Numbered from the stretch's first letter, positions 2,250 to 61,719 are shown. The stretch: DNA of 64,000 nucleotides from Dehalococcoidia bacterium (GCA_048539495.1 JBLYPS010000005.1:11473-75472); one strand, 5' to 3'. Program-made: numbers and translations. The notes: generated by a model from the letters alone, not told the origin.

Positions 2250-3497
2250 TTACCAGCCCCTCTTCAGGATTATGTTGCATACTGTGCCGGCATCGCCGCC
2301 CAGGGTATCGGTCATGCCTATTCTTGCGCCGTCCACCTGCCGCTTTCCGCATTCACTCCGAAGCTGCTTTACCACTTCGTATACCTGAGCAGCACCGGTA
2401 GCCCCTATGGGATGACCCTTGGCCTTAAGACCACCGGAGGGATTGATGGCGATCTTGCCGCCGATCTCGGTCTCGCCCCGCTCCACCGCCCGGCCTCCGT
2501 GGCCGAACTCAAAGAATCCGAGGCACTCCATAGACACAATCTCAGCAATGGTAAAGCAATCATGGAGCTCGCAGAGGTCAACGTCCTGTGGCTCAATGCC
2601 CGCTTGAGCATAGGCTTGCTTTGCCGATAGGATTCGAGATTTCATCTGGGTGAAGTCCTTCTGATCGGAGAGAGAGCCGACGGAACACTGCCCCACGCCA
2701 GCTATCAGAACAGGCTTATCGGTCAATGTCCTGGCCTTGTCACCGGATACCAGTACCACTGCGGCTGCACCATCGGTGAAGGGGCAGCAATCGTAGAGTT
2801 GCAAGGGATCGGCGATCAGTGGATTCGCCTTGATGTCACGAAGGAACTCCATCTCATCCGCCCAGGTGGGAACCGACTGACCCTTTTGGGTTGCTCTAGC
2901 TATCCGTGCCTCCATGAGGTCTCTAATGGTTGCCTGGAACTGAGCCTTGGGATTGAGCTTGCCGTTCCGATGGTTCTTGATGGCTACCATTGCCATTTGC
3001 TCCTTGAGTTTGGCGAGTGGTATCCCATACTTATGGGAGTAGAGGTGAGCCAACAGAGCGAAGACCCCGGGAAAGGTGATCCCCGCGGGGCCCTCGTAGT
3101 AGCTATTGCTACACATGGCAAAGGCCCGCGTTGCGGCGGGGGTGTCCATCGCCAAAACCCTCTCGGTCCCACCGGCGAGCACGATGTCATAATACCCCGA
3201 AGCTACCCACATGAAGGCATCCCTGACCGCCACCGAGCCGCTAGCACAGGCACCCTCGAATCTAGTGGTGGGGATATTGGGGATTCCTATATCAGCGGCG
3301 GCGAATGGGGCCATGTTTACCTGGCCCTCTTCATGCGAGCCAAACACGTTGCCGAAGAAAAGTGCCTGGATATCCTTCGGCTTGAGATTCGACTCGTTTA
3401 TAGCTTCCATGGCAGCCTCAGAGAACATCTCGATGTTGGTGTTTTCCGAGACGCCGAACTTGGTCATTCCCACGCCAACTACTGCAACCTCTCTTAT
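2250..3497 (-). CDS. Thiolase family protein (SCP2/archaeal-type acetyl-CoA acetyltransferase), probable ATA start
   Basis: Motifs EGACASG, HDCF and GHPIGATG. The frame extends upstream as IREVAVVGVGMTKFG, with AGGAGG 5 nt before the ATA at 3497. Confidence 0.9.
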   Translation of the reverse strand: MREVAVVGVGMTKFGVSENTNIEMFSEAAMEAINESNLKPKDIQALFFGNVFGSHEEGQVNMAPFAAADIGIPNIPTTRFEGACASGSVAVRDAFMWVASGYYDIVLAGGTERVLAMDTPAATRAFAMCSNSYYEGPAGITFPGVFALLAHLYSHKYGIPLAKLKEQMAMVAIKNHRNGKLNPKAQFQATIRDLMEARIARATQKGQSVPTWADEMEFLRDIKANPLIADPLQLYDCCPFTDGAAAVVLVSGDKARTLTDKPVLIAGVGQCSVGSLSDQKDFTQMKSRILSAKQAYAQAGIEPQDVDLCELHDCFTIAEIVSMECLGFFEFGHGGRAVERGETEIGGKIAINPSGGLKAKGHPIGATGAAQVYEVVKQLRSECGKRQVDGARIGMTDTLGGDAGTVCNIILKRGW

Positions 3498-4665
3498 CTC
3501 TTCCTCCTTTCAGTTGTAAACGCCTGAACTCCCTCGACACCTCGGCCGTCAACTCCAGGGCCCGCTCCGCTGACCGGGGCGAGATCGAGCCCAGGCCGCA
3601 GGACGGGGTAATCAGGCTTTGTTCCCATAATCTATCATAACCGATGCCACTCTCTGAAAGCAAGCCCATCAGCTTCTCCAGACGCCCCAGTAGCTTCGAG
3701 GCGGTCTCATCAGACAGCATCGCCTCATCGCTGGGGACGATTCCCCAGGCCAGCACACCACCTCGATCGATGAAGGCCTTGATTTCAGCGGGATATAACG
3801 TCAGCGACTCACCGTAGTTGTAGGCATCGAAGCTGAGGATATCGATGGTCGTATTCATCAAGACGGGCCAGTCGGCATTTCCACAGCAATGGATTCCTTT
3901 GAGTCCACTCAGGCCACCCAGTGTCTCATCGATGAGACTGATGACCATATCAGTCGAAACCGCCACAAATGCCGAACCCAACGAGGCAAGATATGGCTCG
4001 TCGATGAAGATAATGGTATTGGATGAAAGTCTGGATAGCTCCCTCTCCTGCCACCTGGCCTTTAAGGCGAGGTGTTTGGCCAGGGCATCGGCGAGGGCAT
4101 CATCATACAGGATGGGACGGCGATTCTGGTCGGTGACCATCAGTCCGAAGCTGACAGGCCCAATCACCTGCCCTTTCACGGCGTAGATACGAGTTCCGAG
4201 TTCCGAGTTCCGAGTTCCGAGGGGGAAGGTCTCGGTACTCAGTACTCGGTACTCAGTACTCAAATGGGAGAGAAACTGCTGGAGTCCGAGGGCATATTCC
4301 GGGCTTACGGCACCGAGTTCTGAGTGTCGAGTGCCGAGTGCCGAGCACCGAGTACCGGGTGGGGTGGGGGGTACTCGGTACTCAGTACTCAGTACTCGGT
4401 ACTCCGTGTAGAGTCTTTCCAGCGGCTCAGAGAGGTCCACCGAGCGGTTGACGTAGATACGCTCGCTCCCCTGAACCAATCCGGGGAAGCCCTCACTAAA
4501 CTGGGTGTACATGCTCTCCAGGAACGATCGACGGGGGAGTTGCGGCCAGACGGGTATCTCGGGCAGATTCGCCCGAACAATCGAACACGCCTCAACAGGG
4601 TCGGTGTGCGGCATGCTGCCGATCGCGGTGGGTAAGCCTCCGGGTTTGAATGTTTTCCGGTTCAA
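3418..4665 (-). CDS. Cobalamin-independent methionine synthase catalytic-domain-like (core MetE-like) protein with two in-frame repeat insertions
   Basis: Motifs PTAIGSMPHTDP, IFIDEPYL, IHCCG and TPSCGLG (Zn-ligand pattern); probable TTG start at 4665 after GGGAG. Confidence 0.8.
   Translation of the reverse strand: MNRKTFKPGGLPTAIGSMPHTDPVEACSIVRANLPEIPVWPQLPRRSFLESMYTQFSEGFPGLVQGSERIYVNRSVDLSEPLERLYTEYRVLSTEYRVPPTPPGTRCSALGTRHSELGAVSPEYALGLQQFLSHLSTEYRVLSTETFPLGTRNSELGTRIYAVKGQVIGPVSFGLMVTDQNRRPILYDDALADALAKHLALKARWQERELSRLSSNTIIFIDEPYLASLGSAFVAVSTDMVISLIDETLGGLSGLKGIHCCGNADWPVLMNTTIDILSFDAYNYGESLTLYPAEIKAFIDRGGVLAWGIVPSDEAMLSDETASKLLGRLEKLMGLLSESGIGYDRLWEQSLITPSCGLGSISPRSAERALELTAEVSREFRRLQLKGGRDKRGCSSWRGNDQVRRLGKHQHRDVL
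4190..4261. repeat. Imperfectly palindromic heptamer repeat block (CGAGTTC)n...(GTACTCG/A)n inside the CDS
   Basis: Read directly; encodes STEYRVLSTETFPLGTRNSELGTR. Confidence 0.9.
4314..4404. repeat. Imperfectly palindromic heptamer repeat block (CGAGTGC/CGAGTAC)n...(GTACTCG/A)n inside the CDS
   Basis: Read directly; encodes TEYRVLSTEYRVPPTPPGTRCSALGTRHSELG. Confidence 0.9.
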
Positions 4666-4859
4666 TTTCGTGCTCCCTGGATTTATTATTGCAAACACAA
4701 TTTTCTTCCCCGTGAATTGCAATAATTATCGGCCGAATATCTCCACATCGATTCATGAATGCTAATTGAGTTTCAGCACTATTATAACACTGCCGCAGAG
4801 TAGTGCAAAGGAGGCTTTATTGAGGTGGCCCTAAGATTTGCTTACGAGAAAGCAGTTTA

Positions 4860-5485: not shown

Positions 5486-6021
5486 ATGGTTCAAACAACG
5501 TCCCCCCAATTGATCATGGTAGGGAAACGCAAAATCACCGTTAACGGCCAAATCATTTCCTACATCATCAAGCACAGCGCCAGGGCAAAACACGTCCGGC
5601 TCGAGGTGAGACAAGGAACGGGCCTTATAGTAGTGATTCCAAAGTCTTGTAAGATTGAACAAATCCCGGACCTTTTGAAGGCGAAGGGGGACTGGATATT
5701 AGACAAGCTCGCAAAGTATGGCGAAGTGCAACCGCTTTGTGCCGACAGGGAAGTCAAAAGTGGCGATGTCATTCCCACCTTGACTACATCATCATTCATG
5801 AGCTTGCCCATCTAAAAGAGATGAATCATGAGGCTCTTGCAAAAATCCGTTGGCCGAAGCTGAGATAACGCAACTGCCAGCTTCAGAGAATCCCTTTTGC
5901 AAGAGGCTCTCATACAAAGAGATTCTGGGAACTGGTAGCTGAACACTGTCCCCGATGGCGCGAGCACAAGAAATGGCTCAAGGATCACGAGACAGAGCTC
6001 GCTGCCAAACTGCTCCCTTAG
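5486..6021 (+). pseudogene. M48/YgjP-like (DUF45) metallopeptidase pseudogene
   Basis: The N-terminus (SARAKHVRLEV...WILDKL) joins out of frame to LDYIIIHELAHLKEMNH (HEXXH), so the middle of the protein is missing. A MITE interrupts NH/HTKRFW; the C-terminus ends ...WLKDHETELAAKLLP*. Confidence 0.85.
5830..5909 (+). mobile_element. 80-bp MITE, copy 1
   Basis: Terminal inverted repeats GAG(G/C)CTCTTGCAAAA; 4-bp target duplication TCAT at 5826-5829 and 5910-5913; second copy at 44965. Confidence 0.9.
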
Positions 6022-11600: not shown

Positions 11601-11649
11601 ATTACCCATTACCCATTACCCATCACCCATTACCCATCACCCATCACCC
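11601..11649. repeat. Intergenic heptamer tandem repeat (AT[T/C]ACCC)x7
   Basis: Seven copies read directly. Confidence 0.95.
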
Positions 11650-11743
11650 GCTCTCTCCATGGTAATTCTATCATTAGTCTCAAGTTTTGCAACAGCCTCG
11701 GAGGGAAATGTAAGGGGATTACAACAGATTCGCCCTGTGTCTG

Positions 11744-31243: not shown

Positions 31244-31311
31244 CACAGGATACACGATTCAGGATTCATGATGCACGATGCACCCGTCTCCAGACTCTAG
31301 ACTCCAGACTC
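31244..31311. repeat. Degenerate heptamer tandem repeats (TNCANGA; CTCYAGA)
   Basis: cacagga tacacga ttcagga ttcatga tgcacga, then ctccaga ctctaga ctccaga. Confidence 0.7.
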
Positions 31312-31788
31312 TCCCCCGAATCCCTCTACCAGCCGGGCGTAGGTGTCTGCCAGAGCTTCGGGCACAACCTTCGCATCGGATATAACCGGCATAAAGTTAG
31401 TATCGCCCTCCCATCGCGGCACGATATGAGTATGGATGTGATCCTCGACTCCGGCGCCGGCCACCTTGCCCAGGTTTATCCCTATATTAAAGCCGGATGG
31501 ACGCAGCACCCTTGTCAGCAGGGCAACAGACCGACTCACCAGTCGAAAATGTTCCAGCAACTCTTCGTCACTTAGCTTATCCAGGCTCGCTACATGCCTA
31601 TACGGTGCCACCATCAGATGTCCCGGATTATAGGGGTAAATGTTCAACATGGAGAAGTTCCTCTCTCCCCGACGCACAATGTAGTTCTTCCCATCCGTCT
31701 CTTGACCTGCTTTTTCACAGAAGATGCATTGCTTCTCCTTTTTGGCCAGAATATACTCCATTCTCCATGGAGCCCAGAGATGTTCCAT
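31297..31788 (-). CDS. HIT family hydrolase (Ap4A phosphorylase-like)
   Basis: LWAPWRMEYI, CIFC, YPYNPGHLMV and HIHTHIVPRW; AGGAGG 6 nt upstream of the ATG at 31788. Confidence 0.92.
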   Translation of the reverse strand: MEHLWAPWRMEYILAKKEKQCIFCEKAGQETDGKNYIVRRGERNFSMLNIYPYNPGHLMVAPYRHVASLDKLSDEELLEHFRLVSRSVALLTRVLRPSGFNIGINLGKVAGAGVEDHIHTHIVPRWEGDTNFMPVISDAKVVPEALADTYARLVEGFGGESGV

Positions 31789-31990
31789 TTTCATCCTCCT
31801 AACCGGACAAGTCGGAACCGAATAGGTGGTAAAATTGCCCACCCCGACTTCCGGCGACCTTGTGTTATTATAGCCCGAGGGCCACCAGATGACAAGCTTG
31901 CCGGCAACCGGGGTGTATTGGGGTCCGCCGTCTCAACTGGCCCCATAGGACCACCTCGTCCGAGCGAAGTCTTGAAAGAGGCATGGGGAG

Positions 31991-44964: not shown

Positions 44965-45045
44965 GAGCCTCTTGCAAAAAGGGATTCTCTGAAGCTGGCA
45001 GTTGCGTTATCTCAGCTTCGGCCAACGGATTTTTGCAAGAGCCTC
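44965..45045 (-). mobile_element. 81-bp MITE, copy 2
   Basis: Reverse complement of 5830-5909 apart from one extra base in the terminal homopolymer; target duplication AGTT at 44961-44964 and 45046-45049. Confidence 0.9.
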
Positions 45046-45963: not shown

Positions 45964-46689
45964 TCATGCCGCCGGGAAAAGCTTGCCGTATGAAAAGATC
46001 AGGTTGATGCCCAGCGCTCGCGCCAGTTCCTGGACGGCAGGCCGAGCCCGGAATCCGAAGAATAGCGGGATCACCTCGGCGTGCGCCAGGTACTGGCCTT
46101 GCAACAGATGCGGGCGTGCCCGCTCCACTAGCGTGGCGAAGCGGATCAATTCCGGAGCAGTGATGTTGGTTTTCACCTCACCCAGAATCACCACCATTTG
46201 TCCCGGCCGGTCCCGATAGATCCCCTCTCCGTAGATGTTGAACTCCACCTCTTCTTCCCCGATGGTCACGTACCCCCGAGCCAACTCACCCAACTTCAGG
46301 CCCAGTTCCTTCTCCAGGACGTACGGTACCACTTCATAGGAAAGATCTTCCAGGCCACCGCCCAGATTTTCACTCAACCCCCCTAACTGGTGAGCCAGAT
46401 CCCGCACCGCTTTTTCAGTCCGCACCTGCACCTGCGCCAACTTGTCGATCCGTGCCTCGGTCCGTACCTGTGCCTGCGCCAATTCAGCCACCCGTGCCTC
46501 GGTCCGCACCTGCGCCTGCGCCAACTCAGCCACCCGTGCCTCGGTCCGCACCTGCGCCTGCGCCAAGTCCTGCACGACATCCCTGAGTTCGCCCAACTCG
46601 GTGGTATGCTTCTCCTGCACGTACTCCGCCACCATCTCGTTGATGGCCCGCCGCTGTTCCAGATTAAAAGCCTGCTCCGATAAACTCAT
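45964..46689 (-). CDS. Coiled-coil 14-aa-repeat protein with a C-terminal PD-(D/E)XK-like domain
   Basis: (LAQAQVRTEARVAE)n, then EFNIYGEG...ILGEVKT. Confidence 0.7.
   Translation of the reverse strand: MSLSEQAFNLEQRRAINEMVAEYVQEKHTTELGELRDVVQDLAQAQVRTEARVAELAQAQVRTEARVAELAQAQVRTEARIDKLAQVQVRTEKAVRDLAHQLGGLSENLGGGLEDLSYEVVPYVLEKELGLKLGELARGYVTIGEEEVEFNIYGEGIYRDRPGQMVVILGEVKTNITAPELIRFATLVERARPHLLQGQYLAHAEVIPLFFGFRARPAVQELARALGINLIFSYGKLFPAA
46418..46566. repeat. 42-bp coding tandem repeat (~3.5 copies)
   Basis: GCCACCCGTGCCTCGGTCCGCACCTGCGCCTGCGCCAA units. Confidence 0.85.
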
Positions 46690-46809
46690 CATCACACCTC
46701 TCATGTGTCAACCAGGAATACACTCTATAATCCTACCATAAATATCTACGGATGAAAAGCAACTTGCCCGGGGTGAGTTCAACATCGCTGGATTCCGAAA
46801 CCAGTCCTT

Positions 46810-48732: not shown

Positions 48733-50371
48733 ATGAAGCTGACGAGAATAAAAGGAATCGCCCTACTTGTGGCTGCGGTATTGTTGCTGACGGGAGCAAT
48801 GGGTGCAATAGCAGCAGGTGGGGAAGAGAGGCGTGAGGAGTTCCGAATGGATGCTCGCTACTGGTGGGAAGCACCACCCTTAACCCCTTATGAGCGTGAG
48901 CAAGTAAGGGGGATAATGGTCTTGATACTTGACCGTTACTTTGGGATTGATGTTTCTACTATGAGCCCAGAGGAGTTCGAGGATTTGGGGAGATCGATAG
49001 GTCCCGAAAGAGAGAAGGAGGCACTTCGCCTCTTCGAGCATTACGCCAAGAAGAAGGGATTTCAAATGCCTGCAGGGATATTTGAAATGCCTGTGGGGAT
49101 CCCTGTTCCCGGGGAGTTCATACCCCCTGCTGAGGTAAGCTACTGGTGGGAATTGGTTGACCCTGAATATCGTGAGGCAAGGATTGCCTTTTTCCAGGAA
49201 ATGTTTCCAGAGGTCAATGTGAGGAATATGACGCCGGAGGAATTTGAACGTCTCCTTAACCCTCCTCCGCCTCCTCTCAGATTGCTGTCGATTGAGGAGA
49301 TGAAGGGGGAACCGGCTGTCATCGCGGTACATGGAAGAGCCCGTTCATACAGCACCCAGGCCGAGATACGAGAATGGCTCAATAGATTGCGTGAAGTGCA
49401 AGAACTCTTCGGTATTCTGAAGGGGCTAACGGGGCCATCGTTCCCTAGAATCACTGCTAGTGTTGATCCTGCCGGTTACGTCGAGGTATCGCTGACTATG
49501 TTCGAAGGCGAAGAAATGACAATTAATGATGCTCTAGCGTATGTGCCCGAAATTTATGCATTAATAGCTGAGAAGGCAGAGACACTCGACATCAAGGATG
49601 TTCCGGTCGTATTTCGCTTGATAAGAATAATGACAGGACTTTAGTACAGCGACCAGTCCAACCATTGAGGTGGCAATAGCTCCGCAGACAACCCTCCTGG
49701 GTTATGGCGCAAGATATCGCCCTATAATTGGCGGAATTCAGAAGCAGACACGTATTGCGTGGAGATTATCGACAATAGGCTTCGCAGTTCGGCGTCCAAT
49801 CCCGTGGTGGCCTGATGATCTAGACTATGTCATCACCGGACACCTTGGCCCTAGCAATACGCGAACGCCTGTAAATACGCAGATATACCAGCCAACAGTA
49901 GCGTCGGGAAACGAAGTCGGCAGGGTTGCAGCCGTTGCAAGCATGAATGGCTTTGCGGATGTAGCTCGGGTAGCCATTGACAATTGGCATGTCGCCCCAT
50001 ATATCCATATCGGAGGTGGGCACACGGTAGCCGTAAGGGCTTGGGGAGATCCAGTTGAGCACCAGTGGGTCAGTAAATCTGGAATCGCAACCGGCGTTAC
50101 TATTGGGCGGGTAATTAGAACAGGTGTTCCAGAGAACAACCTTGCCTTCGGCACTCTCCAAAACCAGGTTAGAGTAGCTTTTAGAATGACTCCCGGAGAC
50201 AGTGGCGCCCCCGTTTACAGACACAGGAACGGCTGGGCCGAGGGGGTGGAGATACTAGGGATCCTCTGGGGTTGGGCAGAGGATGGGGCAGGCAACTTTT
50301 TATACTCCATCTTTTCACCAACATCGGGAGTAAGAGCTGAACTACCAGGATGGCAACCGCACACGAAATAA
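48733..50371 (+). pseudogene. Secreted S1 protease paralog A, split by one extra base at ~49639-49642
   Basis: Signal peptide, YWWE repeats and DVPVVF prodomain; removing one T from CTTTAG joins it to RYRPIIGG...TGHLG...FADVARV...PGDSGAP. Confidence 0.85.
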
Positions 50372-54419: not shown

Positions 54420-54585
54420 ATGGAATCGTTGTCTCTTTCGTTATATATTATAGAGGGGCAAATCATGGTCGCCACGAAGGGAGGTGAGCGCCAGTGATGA
54501 TAAGCTAAATGTGGTCAGGTGAGCTGGGAGTTCGTCCACACTCACAAAAAGTGGGCAAAAACATAAGAAACGGAGGGTAACAAAA

Positions 54586-56338
54586 ATGAAACTGAAGGGA
54601 ATAAAAGGGATCGCCTTGCTTGTGACTGCGCTGACCTTGCTGGTAGCACCACTGGCTGCAATAGCAGGAGAGGGTATTAATGGGGAATTCAGACCGACGA
54701 CAGGGGAAGGATGGGAATGGGACGCTCGCTATTGGTGGGAAGTGCCGCCTTTAACTGCTTATGAGCGTGAGCAGATGAGGGAGATAATGACCCTGATATT
54801 TGACCGTTACTTCGGAATTGATATCAGCAGGATGAGCCCACAAGAATTTGAGGACGTCGGGACATCGATAGGTCTTGAAGGAGAGAAGAAGGCACTTCGC
54901 CTCTTTGAGCATTACGCCAGGGAGAGGGGATTTCAAATGCCTGCAGGGATATTTGAAATGCCTGGGGAGAGACCCATTCCCGGGGAGTTTATACTCCCGG
55001 TTGATGTAACCTACTGGTGGGAACTGATATACCCTCAATACCGCGAGAAGGAGATTGCCATAATGCTACAGCTTCATCCAGAGCTCAATCGTTATGATCT
55101 GCTGAATATGACGCTGGAGGAGTTTCAACGTCTCCTTAACCCACCTCCGCCTCCTTTGAGATTAAGATTGGTCACGAGAGAAGAGATAGAAGAGTTGGTC
55201 GCGAGAAACCCCTATGTCATTGCAGTATACGGAAAGCTCCGAGCGTATGATACCCAGGCTGAGATAAAAGAGTGGCTCGAGAGATTGGAGGAAGTGCAGG
55301 ACCTTGCGCTCATCCTTATTCTTGAACTAACCACGGCACCACTCACTTCCCTTGGCGTTGGTGCGGGTTACATCTCAGTAGGGTTGTGTATGGACACAGT
55401 GACCGCTGATGAGGCTCTTCTACGGTATGTGCCTGAAGTTCATGCCGTGATATCTGAGGAGGCGGAGACATTCGGCATCTACGATGTTCCCGTAAAATTT
55501 TCGCTTGGCGGACGCATACGATTCGATCTAGGGTACGATATAGGGTGCATAGCGGTACATGCGGATGTTGCAACTCAATCGGGGGCAGTTAGCTCCGCTC
55601 CCGGTTGGTGGCCCTTCCCAGGTCGCATCCCAACTGATCCGAGAGACCACCCCCATGCTCTCATAATTGGTGGGCTTCGCCATGCGATACGCGGGGAGAC
55701 AGGATGGGCCACAACAAGGCTTCGTAGTGCAAAGGCCAATCCCCTTCTGGTGGGATGATGAGGACTATCTCATCACTGGACACTTTGGTCCTGGCAGATT
55801 GCCCGGTACAACCCCTGTAAATCGGGTCGTGTACCAACCAGGGCATCCGCACAACGCCGGGCAGGTTGCAGCAGTCGCACCGTTGGGTGGTTTTGCGGAT
55901 GTAGCCCGAGTGGCAATTGCCGACAGGCGTGTCAACCCCCCATATGTCCATCTGGGGGATCCCGGAATGGATGGCAAAAAGCCAGTTCTCGGCTGGCTGG
56001 ATGATGTACACCGGCAACACGAGCTCTGGATGTCTGGGGCAAGGAGTGGCCTACAATTTGGGCGCGTACATTGGACAAGGAGAGACATAGTTTGCCCCGT
56101 CCGAGGAACTTTTCTCCGGGATCAGGTCTGGGCAGATTATCATGCCGATCCTGGAGATAGTGGCGCTCCCATTCTCCACCCTATGTCAAGGATCGTTGGC
56201 GGCGAGATAACGCGAGGAGTGGCAGTATTAGGAATCCACTCCGGTAGAAAAGTGTACCAAGGTAGGGTATATCGCTTCTTTTCCCCAATATCTGGGATAA
56301 GAACTGAACTGCCAGGATGGTATCCATACACGAGATGA
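54586..56338 (+). pseudogene. Secreted S1 protease paralog B, split by one extra A at ~55716
   Basis: ACAACAAGGCTTC versus ACAACAGGCTTC (TTGF, as in paralog E); triad motifs TGHFG, FADVARV and PGDSGAP are intact. Confidence 0.85.
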
Positions 56339-59857: not shown

Positions 59858-60005
59858 TTATATATAGAGGCCAAAATTTAATGGCTGCGGCTGCCTCGCC
59901 CTTGATCGAAGGAGGTGATGGTTATGTGATAAGGAAACTATAACCGGGAGTTCGTCCATACTCGCAAAAAAGTGGGCAAAAAATAAGAAACGGAGGGTAA
60001 CAAGA

Positions 60006-61719
60006 ATGAAGCGGAAGGGAATAAGAACCATCGTCTTGCTTGGGGTTGTGGCATTGTTGCTGATAGCATTAATGGGTGCAATAGCAGCAGCGGGTGGGGA
60101 AGAGAGACGTATTGATGTGGAGGACTTTAATTGGGATGCTCGCTATTGGTGGGAGGCGCCACCTTTAACCCCTTATGAGCGTGAGCAGGTAAAGGAGATA
60201 ATGGTCTTCATATTTGACCGTTACTTCGGGATCGATGTCTCTACCATGAGCCCAGAGGAGTTCGAGGACTTGGGGAGGTCGATAGGCCCCGGAAGAGAGA
60301 AGGATGTACTTCTCCTCTTCGAGTATTACACCGAGAAGAGGGGATTTCAAATGCCTCCGGGGATATTCGAAATGCCTGTGGACATATCTGTTCTCGAGGA
60401 GTTCATGCCCCCTGCTGAGGTAAGCTACTGGTGGGAACTGGTAGACCCTGAATACCGTGAGGCAAGGATTGCCTTTTTCCAGGAAATATTCGGGGAAAGG
60501 TTTGAAAGGTATCCCGAAGAATTCCCATTCGCAGAAGTGAACGTGAGAAATATGACGCCGGAGGAGTTTGAACGTGCCCTTAGTCCGCCTCTGCCCCCTC
60601 TCAGATTGCTAACGATCGAGGAGATAAAGAGGGAAGGTCCGGCTATCATCGCGGTATACGGAAGACCCCGATCATACACTGCCCAGACCGAGATACGAGA
60701 ATGGCTCGATAGATTGCGTGAAGTGCAGGAACTCTTCATACAGCAAGTGTTTCCGGAGACGCCAGCACCTACGCGACTATTCCCCATAAACCAGATTGGT
60801 ATTCGCTACGGTTTCCTGGTCGTGGGACTGTGTAAGGAAGAATTAACAATCAATGAGGCTCTAGCTCTTGCATCCCACATTTATGCGCTGGTATCTGAGA
60901 AGGCAGATAGACTCGGTGTCCAGGATGTTCCGGTCGTATTTAGCCTCATCCGGAGGGCTGTGCTGGATATAGCTGAACCCCATCAGGTCGCACCTCCGCA
61001 GACAACACGCCCCCCATGGGTGCCCCCCGTGGGTCCAGCCTTCGTACTACCTAAGATTTCGTCCTATACCGGGTGCGGTTTTGATGGCGACACGTTATCT
61101 GCCGACGGGAGCTGCAACGACAGGCTTCGCGGTTATACGGCGAATCGCCTGGTGGCCTGATGATCTAGACTATGTCGTCACCGGACACCTTGGTCCTCGC
61201 CGTACGCGAACGCCTATAGGTATGCCGATATACCAGCCAAGGGTAGCCCCGGGAAACGAAGCCGGCACGGTTGAAGCTGTTGGAAGGATGCATGGATTTG
61301 CCGATGTAGCCCGGGTGGGGATTGCTAATCGCGATGTCGTCCCATATATCCATATAGGAGGTGGCTCCAGGATACCGGTAAGGAGTTGGCGAGATGCACA
61401 TTGGCCTGAGTGGGTCAGCAAGTCCGGGGCCGCAACTGGTGACACTCAAGGGAGGGTAGTTACCAGGCAACCTATTAAGGTATGGAACCCCGCCTTAGGC
61501 TCGCTCCAAAACCAGGTTTTAGCAGCTTACGCATCCGCTGGGGGAGATAGTGGCTCCCCCGTTTTCTTATTCGGTCCCACCGGGGGAGTATACGCAGTGA
61601 TAGTGGGAATCCACTGGGGTCGGGCACCTTGCCCGATAACAGGCATCGATAGGGCTACGTTTTCACCAATATCGGGGATAATGACCGAACTATCCGGATG
61701 GGAACCACACACGAAATAA
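60006..61719 (+). pseudogene. Secreted S1 protease paralog E, split by one extra base in the linker (~61005-61030, C6 runs)
   Basis: The prodomain frame drifts off; the +1 frame reads YYLRFRPIPG...TGHLG...FADVARV...GGDSGSP. Confidence 0.85.

Follow-up and report, generated by a model that had tools for sequence, protein, structure and literature searches.

The 64,000-nucleotide (nt) stretch of DNA analyzed here, from a groundwater Dehalococcoidia bacterium (GCA_048539495.1 JBLYPS010000005.1:11473-75472; "the window"), contains a mesB gene, encoding a core-MetE methionine synthase, in which two blocks of DNA each consist of an inverted pair of tandem heptamer arrays. Both blocks lie in frame, can fold into a long hairpin, and encode the peptide STEYRVLSTE, as the original prediction had proposed and as Tandem Repeats Finder, RNA folding, and the open reading frame (ORF) bear out. 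By analogy, the blocks appear to be inverted pairs of heptanucleotide microsatellite arrays, of the same kind as the convergent pairs of Xanthomonas and the short tandemly repeated repetitive (STRR) sequences of cyanobacteria. We consider it probable that they are tolerated microsatellite hairpins that were seeded by illegitimate repair or template switching, grown by slippage, and filtered by selection. The blocks would then be tolerated passengers, neither functional modules nor copies of a transposing element. This type of repeat is common in bacteria but rarely found in coding regions, and the blocks are not a proven mobile element. The host gene and the parts of the two blocks are as follows, in window coordinates.

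3418..4665, minus strand: mesB/core-MetE methionine synthase gene, assigned from named homologs, zinc ligands, and predicted fold.
4183..4266, minus strand: Block A, an 84-nt non-native segment encoding residues 134-161, HLSTEYRVLSTETFPLGTRNSELGTRIY (DNA alignment with orthologs).
4182..4191, plus strand: CGTAGATACG, 10 nt at the outer junction of Block A, with an exact second copy at 4452-4461, 270 nt away in mesB.
4190..4221, plus strand: 5' arm of Block A, CGAGTTC x4.6, perfect (Tandem Repeats Finder, 100% matches).
4222..4230, plus strand: loop of Block A, GGGGAAGGT, 9 nt, G-rich on this strand (sequence and fold).
4231..4262, plus strand: 3' arm of Block A, CTCGGTA CTCAGTA x2.2, a perfect 14-mer period (CTCrGTA x4.6; Tandem Repeats Finder).
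4312..4404, minus strand: Block B, a 93-nt non-native segment encoding residues 88-118, EYRVLSTEYRVPPTPPGTRCSALGTRHSELG (DNA alignment with orthologs).
4313..4356, plus strand: 5' arm of Block B, degenerate, GAGTTCT GAGTGTC GAGTGCC GAGTGCC GAGCACC GAGTACC (repeat and inverted-repeat searches).
4357..4369, plus strand: loop of Block B, GGGTGGGGTGGGG, 13 nt, G-rich on this strand; the mRNA is C-rich and encodes PPTPP (sequence and fold).
4370..4404, plus strand: 3' arm of Block B, GGTACTC/AGTACTC x5; the mRNA reads GAGTACY and encodes EYRVLSTEYRV (Tandem Repeats Finder and inverted-repeat search).

The four arms hold 4.6, 4.6, 7, and 5 head-to-tail heptamer copies, at least three in each, and pair as inverted repeats of 31-38 nt that are 76-81% complementary around loops of 9-13 nt. 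In Block A, each unit contributes one T:T mismatch (A:A on the mRNA) to the pairing of the arms, and Tandem Repeats Finder describes the first part of Block B as a CCGAGTG-like unit x7 at 4313-4361 with 76% matches. On the coding strand, the predicted RNA folding energy is -41.5 kcal/mol (z -7.0) for Block A and -53 kcal/mol (z -6.0) for Block B, and none of 200 shuffles folded as well as either block. The sequence GTACTCRGTACTC occurs eight times in the window, always inside the two blocks, against an expectation of 0.04, and our own period scan of the window found 9 period-7 runs versus 0-2 each for periods 5, 6, 8, and 9. Both blocks place GAGT first on the plus strand, which is the convergent orientation, and both are free of stop codons; the ORF segments that they contribute, LYTEYRVLSTEYRVPPTPPGTRCSALGTRHSELGAV and SHLSTEYRVLSTETFPLGTRNSELGTRIYAV, each include STEYRVLSTE. 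The blocks are unlike each other in loop and 5' arm, and no GTACTCR array was found outside them within the 64-kb window. Rfam returned no family at threshold for the blocks, and its sub-threshold look-alikes, microRNA precursors, were dismissed as generic long hairpins. We also rejected the blocks as terminators, as no terminator-like site was found in or near them. A literature search for the units and for the encoded peptides LGTRNSE and SEFRVPS found nothing relevant.

We compared the gene with orthologs in alignments of 22 (A1) and 90 (A2) proteins, in 80 metagenome loci (247 kb), and in 80 GTDB loci. In all, ~200 orthologs lack both blocks, which are absent from 20 proteins in A1, 88 in A2, and all 80 loci of each nucleotide set. 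No other sequence in either alignment carries Block A; at the site of Block B, a single other aligned protein (P0002) has an insert, unrelated in sequence; and heptamer arrays inside mesB were found in 0 of 80 metagenome and 0 of 80 GTDB loci. Orthologs bearing the same segments without DNA-level periodicity, which the original prediction had named as evidence that would count against it, were thus not encountered, and its view of the blocks as lineage-specific additions holds. In the DNA alignment, Block B replaces 30 native nucleotides (AYMNDDPDRY in orthologs) and Block A replaces 21 (RELGSAF in orthologs), each with a net gain of 63 nt or 21 amino acids. The same alignment reveals no target-site duplication at either block. 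The block junctions show microhomology to native sequence (GCCTAC to GAGTAC, CCGGT to TCGGT, and GAAtTgGG--CTCGG to GAACTCGGAACTCGG). The 10-nt CGTAGATACG at the outer junction of Block A may be templated filler; by our own rough estimate, the chance of such a repeat landing on a junction is ~1 in 100.

The gene encoding P0002 (L122 2683-3780, L123, L445) belongs to a sister strain and contains, at site B, a degenerate heptamer hairpin of the GGGTAAT/ATTACCC type, VMGSRQWAMGATGYLYDLSPLTYYPEC, whose unit is that of an intergenic array at 11601 in the window. A P0002-like sister strain coexists with the window strain in the same aquifer samples at about one-third of its depth and differs from it at flanking single-nucleotide polymorphisms (SNPs). 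At site A, where the window strain has 4183-4264, it retains 19 native nt, and at site B an 89-nt insert of its own takes the place of 4314-4405. Empty and filled alleles, along with a differently filled one, occur together in one aquifer.

Could the blocks be assembly artefacts, or be removed before the protein is made, in the manner of an intron, an intein, or translational bypass? We examined eight independent groundwater assemblies from 2017 to 2024 (X1-X8), six from DNA and two from metatranscriptomes, at the level of assembled contigs. As an artefact would predict, the (CGAGTTC)n arm of Block A interrupts the de Bruijn contigs in most runs. Nevertheless, in every one of the eight runs, independent contigs span 4189/4193-4558 with 0 differences, a range that takes in Block B entirely and the second arm of Block A. 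An NCBI metagenome-assembled genome (MAG) is likewise identical through both blocks. The contigs from RNA retain the blocks at flank-like depth, and the only joints that skip them belong to the P0002-like sister strain with its distinct SNPs. In addition, the blocks are multiples of three and free of stops, which a spliced or bypassed element would not require; they lack catalytic motifs of their own, being simple repeats that stay in the RNA contigs; and the Rfam result also speaks against such an element. We consider artefact or removal to be extremely unlikely and already largely refuted; the worry about misassembly raised in the original prediction is contradicted by the eight runs and the NCBI MAG. 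No length variants or indels were seen in the contigs of the eight runs and the one MAG, although contigs drop rare variants. The (CGAGTTC)n arm of Block A reaches 3-18 times the k-mer depth of its flanks in the eight runs, and contigs join it to other flanks, from which it follows that the same array occurs at other loci in the community; these loci share this arm only, not the whole of Block A.

The blocks are transcribed together with mesB, and they would be translated into two low-complexity, probably flexible extensions of ~21 extra residues each. The original prediction of new peptide segments thus stands to the extent that the blocks add peptide sequence dictated by the DNA repeat and occur in metatranscriptome contigs.

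The host, described in the original prediction as MetE-like, is more precisely a member of the MesB/core-MetE family. The minus-strand ORF at 3418-4722, where 4722 is the mechanical upper limit, is open through both blocks. The start codon is probably the TTG at 4665, which would yield a protein of 415 amino acids beginning with MNRKTFKPGG; an NCBI protein from a Dehalococcoidia MAG (P0001), 99% identical, matches this start and length. The gene product has more than 7,000 homologs, most of ~345 amino acids, and those bearing a name are methionine synthases (cobalamin-independent). All four zinc ligands (H259, C261, D280, and C356) are preserved, and they are invariant in A2. They correspond to H215, C217, D236, and C312 of the CBDB1 protein, with an offset of +44 that is explained by two net insertions of 21 residues plus 2. 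An AlphaFold model built from 90 sequences has a mean predicted local distance difference test (pLDDT) score of 85.8, and its best Foldseek matches in the PDB are B12-independent methionine synthases (3rpd, E 4e-8; 1xdj, TM 0.52). Pfam gave no match to the insert-bearing protein, a PDB sequence search with the 90-sequence profile found nothing, and NCBIfam gave only a weak, sub-threshold match to methionine synthase, so the identity of the protein rests on its named homologs, zinc ligands, and fold. An NCBI record labels this protein a hypothetical protein only.

The ratio of nonsynonymous to synonymous substitution rates is 0.32 between the window gene and an insert-free ortholog (L124), and it is also 0.32 between the sister strain (L122) and that ortholog. 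The enzyme retains its catalytic residues and is under purifying selection at the same level as its relatives, and from its sequence the gene looks functional. The MesB/core-MetE family has been characterized in Dehalococcoides mccartyi (PMC7005905, PMC7857596), likewise of the class Dehalococcoidia. Not counting the inserts, the window protein resembles that enzyme in being a single barrel of ~345 amino acids; it also shares the HxC...D...C zinc site and the absence of a folate-binding N-terminal domain. Unlike the D. mccartyi enzyme, the window protein reaches 415 amino acids through the two net insertions of 21 residues each plus a ~30-residue C-terminal tail, and has QVIG in place of the HxxG motif. 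At the end of the gene (3418-3530), the expected ATG of the downstream thiolase gene, which forms an ATGA overlap in the sister strain (L122), is ATA in both the window and the NCBI MAG. An 8-nt indel shifts the end of mesB, giving rise to the ~30-residue tail (pLDDT below 50), which overlaps the thiolase gene.

In the predicted structure, the inserts of Blocks A and B (residues 134-161 and 88-118, respectively) fall in a helical excursion between a β-hairpin (63-72) and the barrel strand 163-168. The STEYRVLSTE parts encoded by GAGTACY are modeled as extensions of helices 79-97 and 126-143, and the remainder is coil. Mean pLDDT falls to 51-68 in the blocks, which coincide with low-pLDDT stretches, and the native residues that they replace occupy unconserved ("x") columns of the family consensus. 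The expectation that the blocks would map to surface loops is supported in that they occupy the most variable columns and are modeled with low confidence.

The hairpins could also have been selected for a function, either at the mRNA level, as structures slowing translation or determining mRNA stability, or through peptides forming new surface segments that alter docking of the corrinoid methyl donor. The strong RNA hairpins are consistent with this idea, as is the stability of the blocks over 7 years and in two assemblies. Moreover, 4 residues separate the end of Block A from the KGQ strand, the strand that aligns with the His122 proposed to face the corrinoid in the characterized enzyme. We nevertheless regard a selected function as very unlikely: every other ortholog lacks the blocks, a coexisting sister strain does without Block A, the peptide is merely dictated by the DNA repeat and modeled with low confidence, and identical units occur in unrelated proteins and in intergenic DNA.

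Heptamer arrays are not confined to mesB. The window holds six different heptamer units, and two further sites were noted in the original prediction as intergenic arrays, at 11601 and 31244.

11601-11649: ATTACCC x7 array, intergenic (Tandem Repeats Finder).
31246-31311: heptamer arrays overlapping the 3' end of a HIT-family gene.

The first is intergenic as described, the second overlaps a gene, and the units differ. Within the second site, a CTCCAGA/CTCTAGA array at 31288-31311 forms the end of the coding sequence of the HIT-family gene (31297-31842, minus strand), namely its final four codons and TAG stop. The unit of this array, CAGACTC, also forms arrays in a related genome, AH-958-J08 (L446 512-564).

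Array density is 7.8 per 100 kb in the window and 12.9 in the three closest genomes, versus 0.28 in other Dehalococcoidia (1 in 358 kb). With arrays ~30 times denser in this small clade than elsewhere in the class, array activity is clade specific. AH-958-J08, a single-cell genome and one of the three closest, contains a GAGTTCC/GGTACTC hairpin (L023). Beyond the class, GTACTCR arrays and CGAGTTC arrays each occur at 120 or more GTDB loci, in Acidobacteriota, Planctomycetota, Gemmatimonadota, Chloroflexota, Verrucomicrobiota, Bacteroidota, Cyanobacteria, and others. A control heptamer with a scrambled sequence proved as broadly distributed as the two real units, likewise at 120 or more loci; the counts for all three heptamers are lower bounds, not relative abundances. 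We therefore dropped the idea that GTACTCR/GAGTTCC is a special cross-phylum sequence family, and a special status of the GAGTNCC sequence is unsupported for the same reason. The general property is period 7, not the sequence of the unit: the fetched loci contain 265 period-7 arrays versus 0-19 for other periods. Array clusters are depleted from long open frames but not absent (41 of 145, or 28%, compared to 467 of 725 random controls).

The original suggestion that coding loops are being colonized holds up to the extent that at least 11 conserved proteins of other phyla contain same-unit arrays in frame; Pfam confirms those listed below.

UvrA: L002 (three clusters) and L095.
Mfd: L006 (three clusters).
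DnaE: L017 and L127.
Tgt: L045.
PriA: L064.
PutA: L133.
CheA: L220 and L175.
AsnB: L214.
NadA: L126.

The in-frame arrays elsewhere encode the same peptides, STEYRV, SSEFRVPS, and LGTRNSEL. The three in-frame clusters in UvrA of a Planctomyces MAG lie at L002 4239-4272, 5255-5343, and 6053-6144, and those in Mfd of a Chloroflexia MAG lie at L006 3420-3513, 5784-5829, and 6363-6427. These triple clusters mirror the two clusters in mesB and suggest that arrays cluster locally.

The original prediction went further and proposed a selfish repeat family that colonizes coding loops. The arrays in other coding sequences support part of this claim, but the blocks lack the duplication, ends, and loop expected of one inserting family. 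The window provides a direct comparison, as it contains a miniature inverted-repeat transposable element (MITE).

5830-5909: MITE-like element, 80 nt, with 15-nt terminal inverted repeats GAGGCTCTTGCAAAA and a TCAT duplication.
44965-45045: near-identical second copy in the opposite orientation, with an AGTT duplication.
11685-11699: solo MITE end, 36 nt from the heptamer array at 11601-11649.

Like a MITE, the blocks are short hairpin-forming DNA able to sit inside genes. The heptamer hairpins, however, show no counterpart to the MITE's 15-nt terminal inverted repeats, 4-bp duplications, and near-identical copies: both sites have lost native bases, neither block has near-identical full-length copies within the 64-kb window, and neither contains a fixed 20-40-nt palindrome of the repetitive extragenic palindrome (REP) or REP doublet (REPIN) type. 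The MITE copy at 5830-5909 lies in a decayed YgjP-like (HELAHLKEMNH) gene at 5486-6020, a pseudogene with its N-terminal part in another frame and its middle missing, to which it adds 84 nt in frame with a TAA stop inside.

A non-autonomous mobile palindromic element of the MITE, REPIN, or Rickettsia palindromic element (RPE) type, with its enzyme encoded elsewhere and spreading into coding loops, would fit several of our observations. The (CGAGTTC)n arm exceeds its flanks in depth 3-18 times across the community and joins other flanks, the same arm pair recurs in other genomes including a close relative (L023, L002), and there are three hits in one gene of one clade. A Phycisphaeraceae MAG (L180 5800-7060, L196 2250-7200) has GAGTTCC/GGAACTC hairpins with a conserved inner stem, GAGTTrrAAGGC...GCCTTtcAACTC, and variable centers, and these hairpins are more element-like than the window blocks. 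Still, the blocks show neither a target-site duplication nor conservation of termini or loop; they vary in unit number and came at the cost of 30 and 21 native nucleotides; units differ by locus; scrambled heptamer arrays are equally widespread; and the window's real MITE has all of the expected hallmarks, the blocks none. Taken together, these points make a mobile element unlikely.

We then considered the order of the arms. A hairpin of the form [X]n-loop-[X']n is the same on both strands; thus, the reverse order is a different object. We surveyed adjacent inverted array pairs in ~360 fetched GTDB loci (L001-L363) and found the GAGTNCC arm first in 44 pairs and the reverse, ACTC-first order in 8 (p 4e-7). 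For other units, the 5' arm contained more G than C in 24 of 31 pairs, and no reversed pair was seen in the control heptamer family. Both window blocks follow the majority polarity. Pairs often have one systematic mismatch per unit (e.g., GAGTTCC/GGTACTC, CGATACT/GAGCATC).

Such polarity would be expected if the inverted arrays were scars of a polar process at DNA breaks, in which both 3' ends are extended by reiterative 7-nt copying (by slippage or in a telomerase-like manner) and then joined, so that each hairpin marks a repaired break. In addition to the polarity of the three sets of pairs, this model draws support from the Xanthomonas pairs, which are "always" convergent (PMC4692102). It would account for why native bases were lost, why the homopolymer-rich loops are unrelated, why there is no duplication, and why arms have different units (GAGTTCC versus GAGTACY), and it is compatible with the 10-nt junction copy of nearby sequence. 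Yet the model is based entirely on pattern and has no known enzyme or intermediate, the polarity could stem from selection on hairpin stability or on transcripts, and the GAGTACC unit departs from a simple base-skew rule. We view it as quite unlikely.

We favor instead the reading of the blocks as tolerated microsatellite hairpins. An illegitimate local event, either break repair or template switching at microhomology, would have deleted 30 and 21 bases of native sequence, leaving behind a short inverted seed on whose two arms the 7-nt units would then have been multiplied and homogenized by replication slippage. Survival of the blocks in coding sequence is explained by four features: each net gain, 63 nt, is divisible by three; in the frame used, GAGTACY, GGAACTC, and GGCACTC units contain no stop codon; both blocks occupy the loops that vary most across the family; and one mismatch per unit keeps the palindromes imperfect. 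Several observations weigh against this account. Intermediate alleles with fewer units were not found in the 80 metagenome and 80 GTDB loci, and growth in place is therefore something that we infer rather than observe; translation of the inserts, too, we only infer. That a single 1.25-kb gene in one small clade saw three independent events, with one site affected twice, exceeds what a uniform random process would predict, and this clustering suggests a hot spot, local spread, or import. The asymmetric arm pair GAGTTCC + GGTACTC recurs in a Planctomyces UvrA (L002) and a Dehalococcoidia single-cell genome (L023), and copies in one Phycisphaeraceae MAG have a conserved inner stem in common; both would fit a mobile family. 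Finally, the strong 5'/3' arm polarity goes beyond slippage alone. Plain slippage thus leaves three things unaccounted for: the three events in one gene and clade, the asymmetric arm pair, and the polarity.

Heptameric microsatellites are over-represented in bacteria (PMC4692102, PMC4679880), an excess first noted by Mrazek et al. 2007, according to its citation in PMC4692102. They include the Xanthomonas GGGAATC arrays, which form convergent inverted pairs (Rehm et al. 2015, PMC4692102). Like these repeats, the blocks consist of tandem 7-nt units, usually in 3-7 copies and often in inverted pairs that share one polarity; close relatives differ in unit number and sequence, the arrays are transcribed, and period 7 is far commoner than neighboring periods. 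Unlike the Xanthomonas arrays, the block units do not form G-quadruplexes and have one systematic arm mismatch per unit. Published heptamer arrays are intergenic and under-represented in ORFs, unlike the two pairs that lie in frame in a conserved enzyme. The blocks thus share with heptameric simple sequence repeats and STRR sequences the three or more tandem copies, the period-7 excess, and the convergent inverted pairs, but not the intergenic location, which is typical of the class and not strictly defining. STRR heptamer arrays of cyanobacteria are known from Calothrix and Nostoc, as cited in PMC4692102. As with those arrays, one genome contains several unrelated heptamer units, which often form hairpins and are abundant in particular lineages; the blocks differ in phylum, in units, in their coding location, and in that no nested dispersed repeat was seen. 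Small dispersed repeats reportedly do lie nested in cyanobacterial STRR arrays, a description attributed to Elhai et al. in 2008. RPEs, which Ogata et al. are said to have described in 2000, reportedly have a conserved consensus of ~100-150 bp. Like RPEs, the blocks are palindromic, lie in frame in a housekeeping gene, are retained in mRNA, and add a peptide at a tolerant site. Unlike RPEs, they have no shared consensus: they have only the 7-nt unit in common, their loops and ends are not conserved, and they take the place of native bases.

Three other features of the window were recorded. A promoter-like site upstream of mesB, at 4781..4809 on the minus strand (TTTGCA-17-TATAAT, with TG), was identified by consensus match only. 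A 42-nt tandem repeat x3.5 lies at 46418-46566 inside an ORF at 45964-46704 (minus strand). Two 21-nt doublets each occur at two distant sites, ATTTCAAATGCCTGCAGGGAT at 49055-49100 and 54930-54968, and GAAACGGAAGGGAACAAAAAT at 54567-54606 and 59987-60027; these doublets could represent regulatory sites that paralogous genes share in their upstream regions.

Of the long microsatellites of bacteria, heptamer repeats are the most strongly over-represented, and they have been treated as intergenic. The mesB gene shows that they can take the place of loops in an essential enzyme without breaking it, and the survey finds the same, across at least six phyla, in enzymes of DNA repair, replication, and biosynthesis, pointing to a recurring source of de novo protein segments. 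Such arrays are a cause of unexplained "low-complexity inserts" in MAG proteins, and the inserts break profile matches, leaving Pfam blank and the NCBI record a hypothetical protein. The coexisting alleles and the polarity of the arms offer a concrete handle on how these repeats arise. If extension at DNA breaks were the correct explanation, a widespread polar process acting on DNA ends would be writing peptide segments into essential enzymes, among them MesB, UvrA, Mfd, DnaE, PriA, Tgt, NadA, and others.

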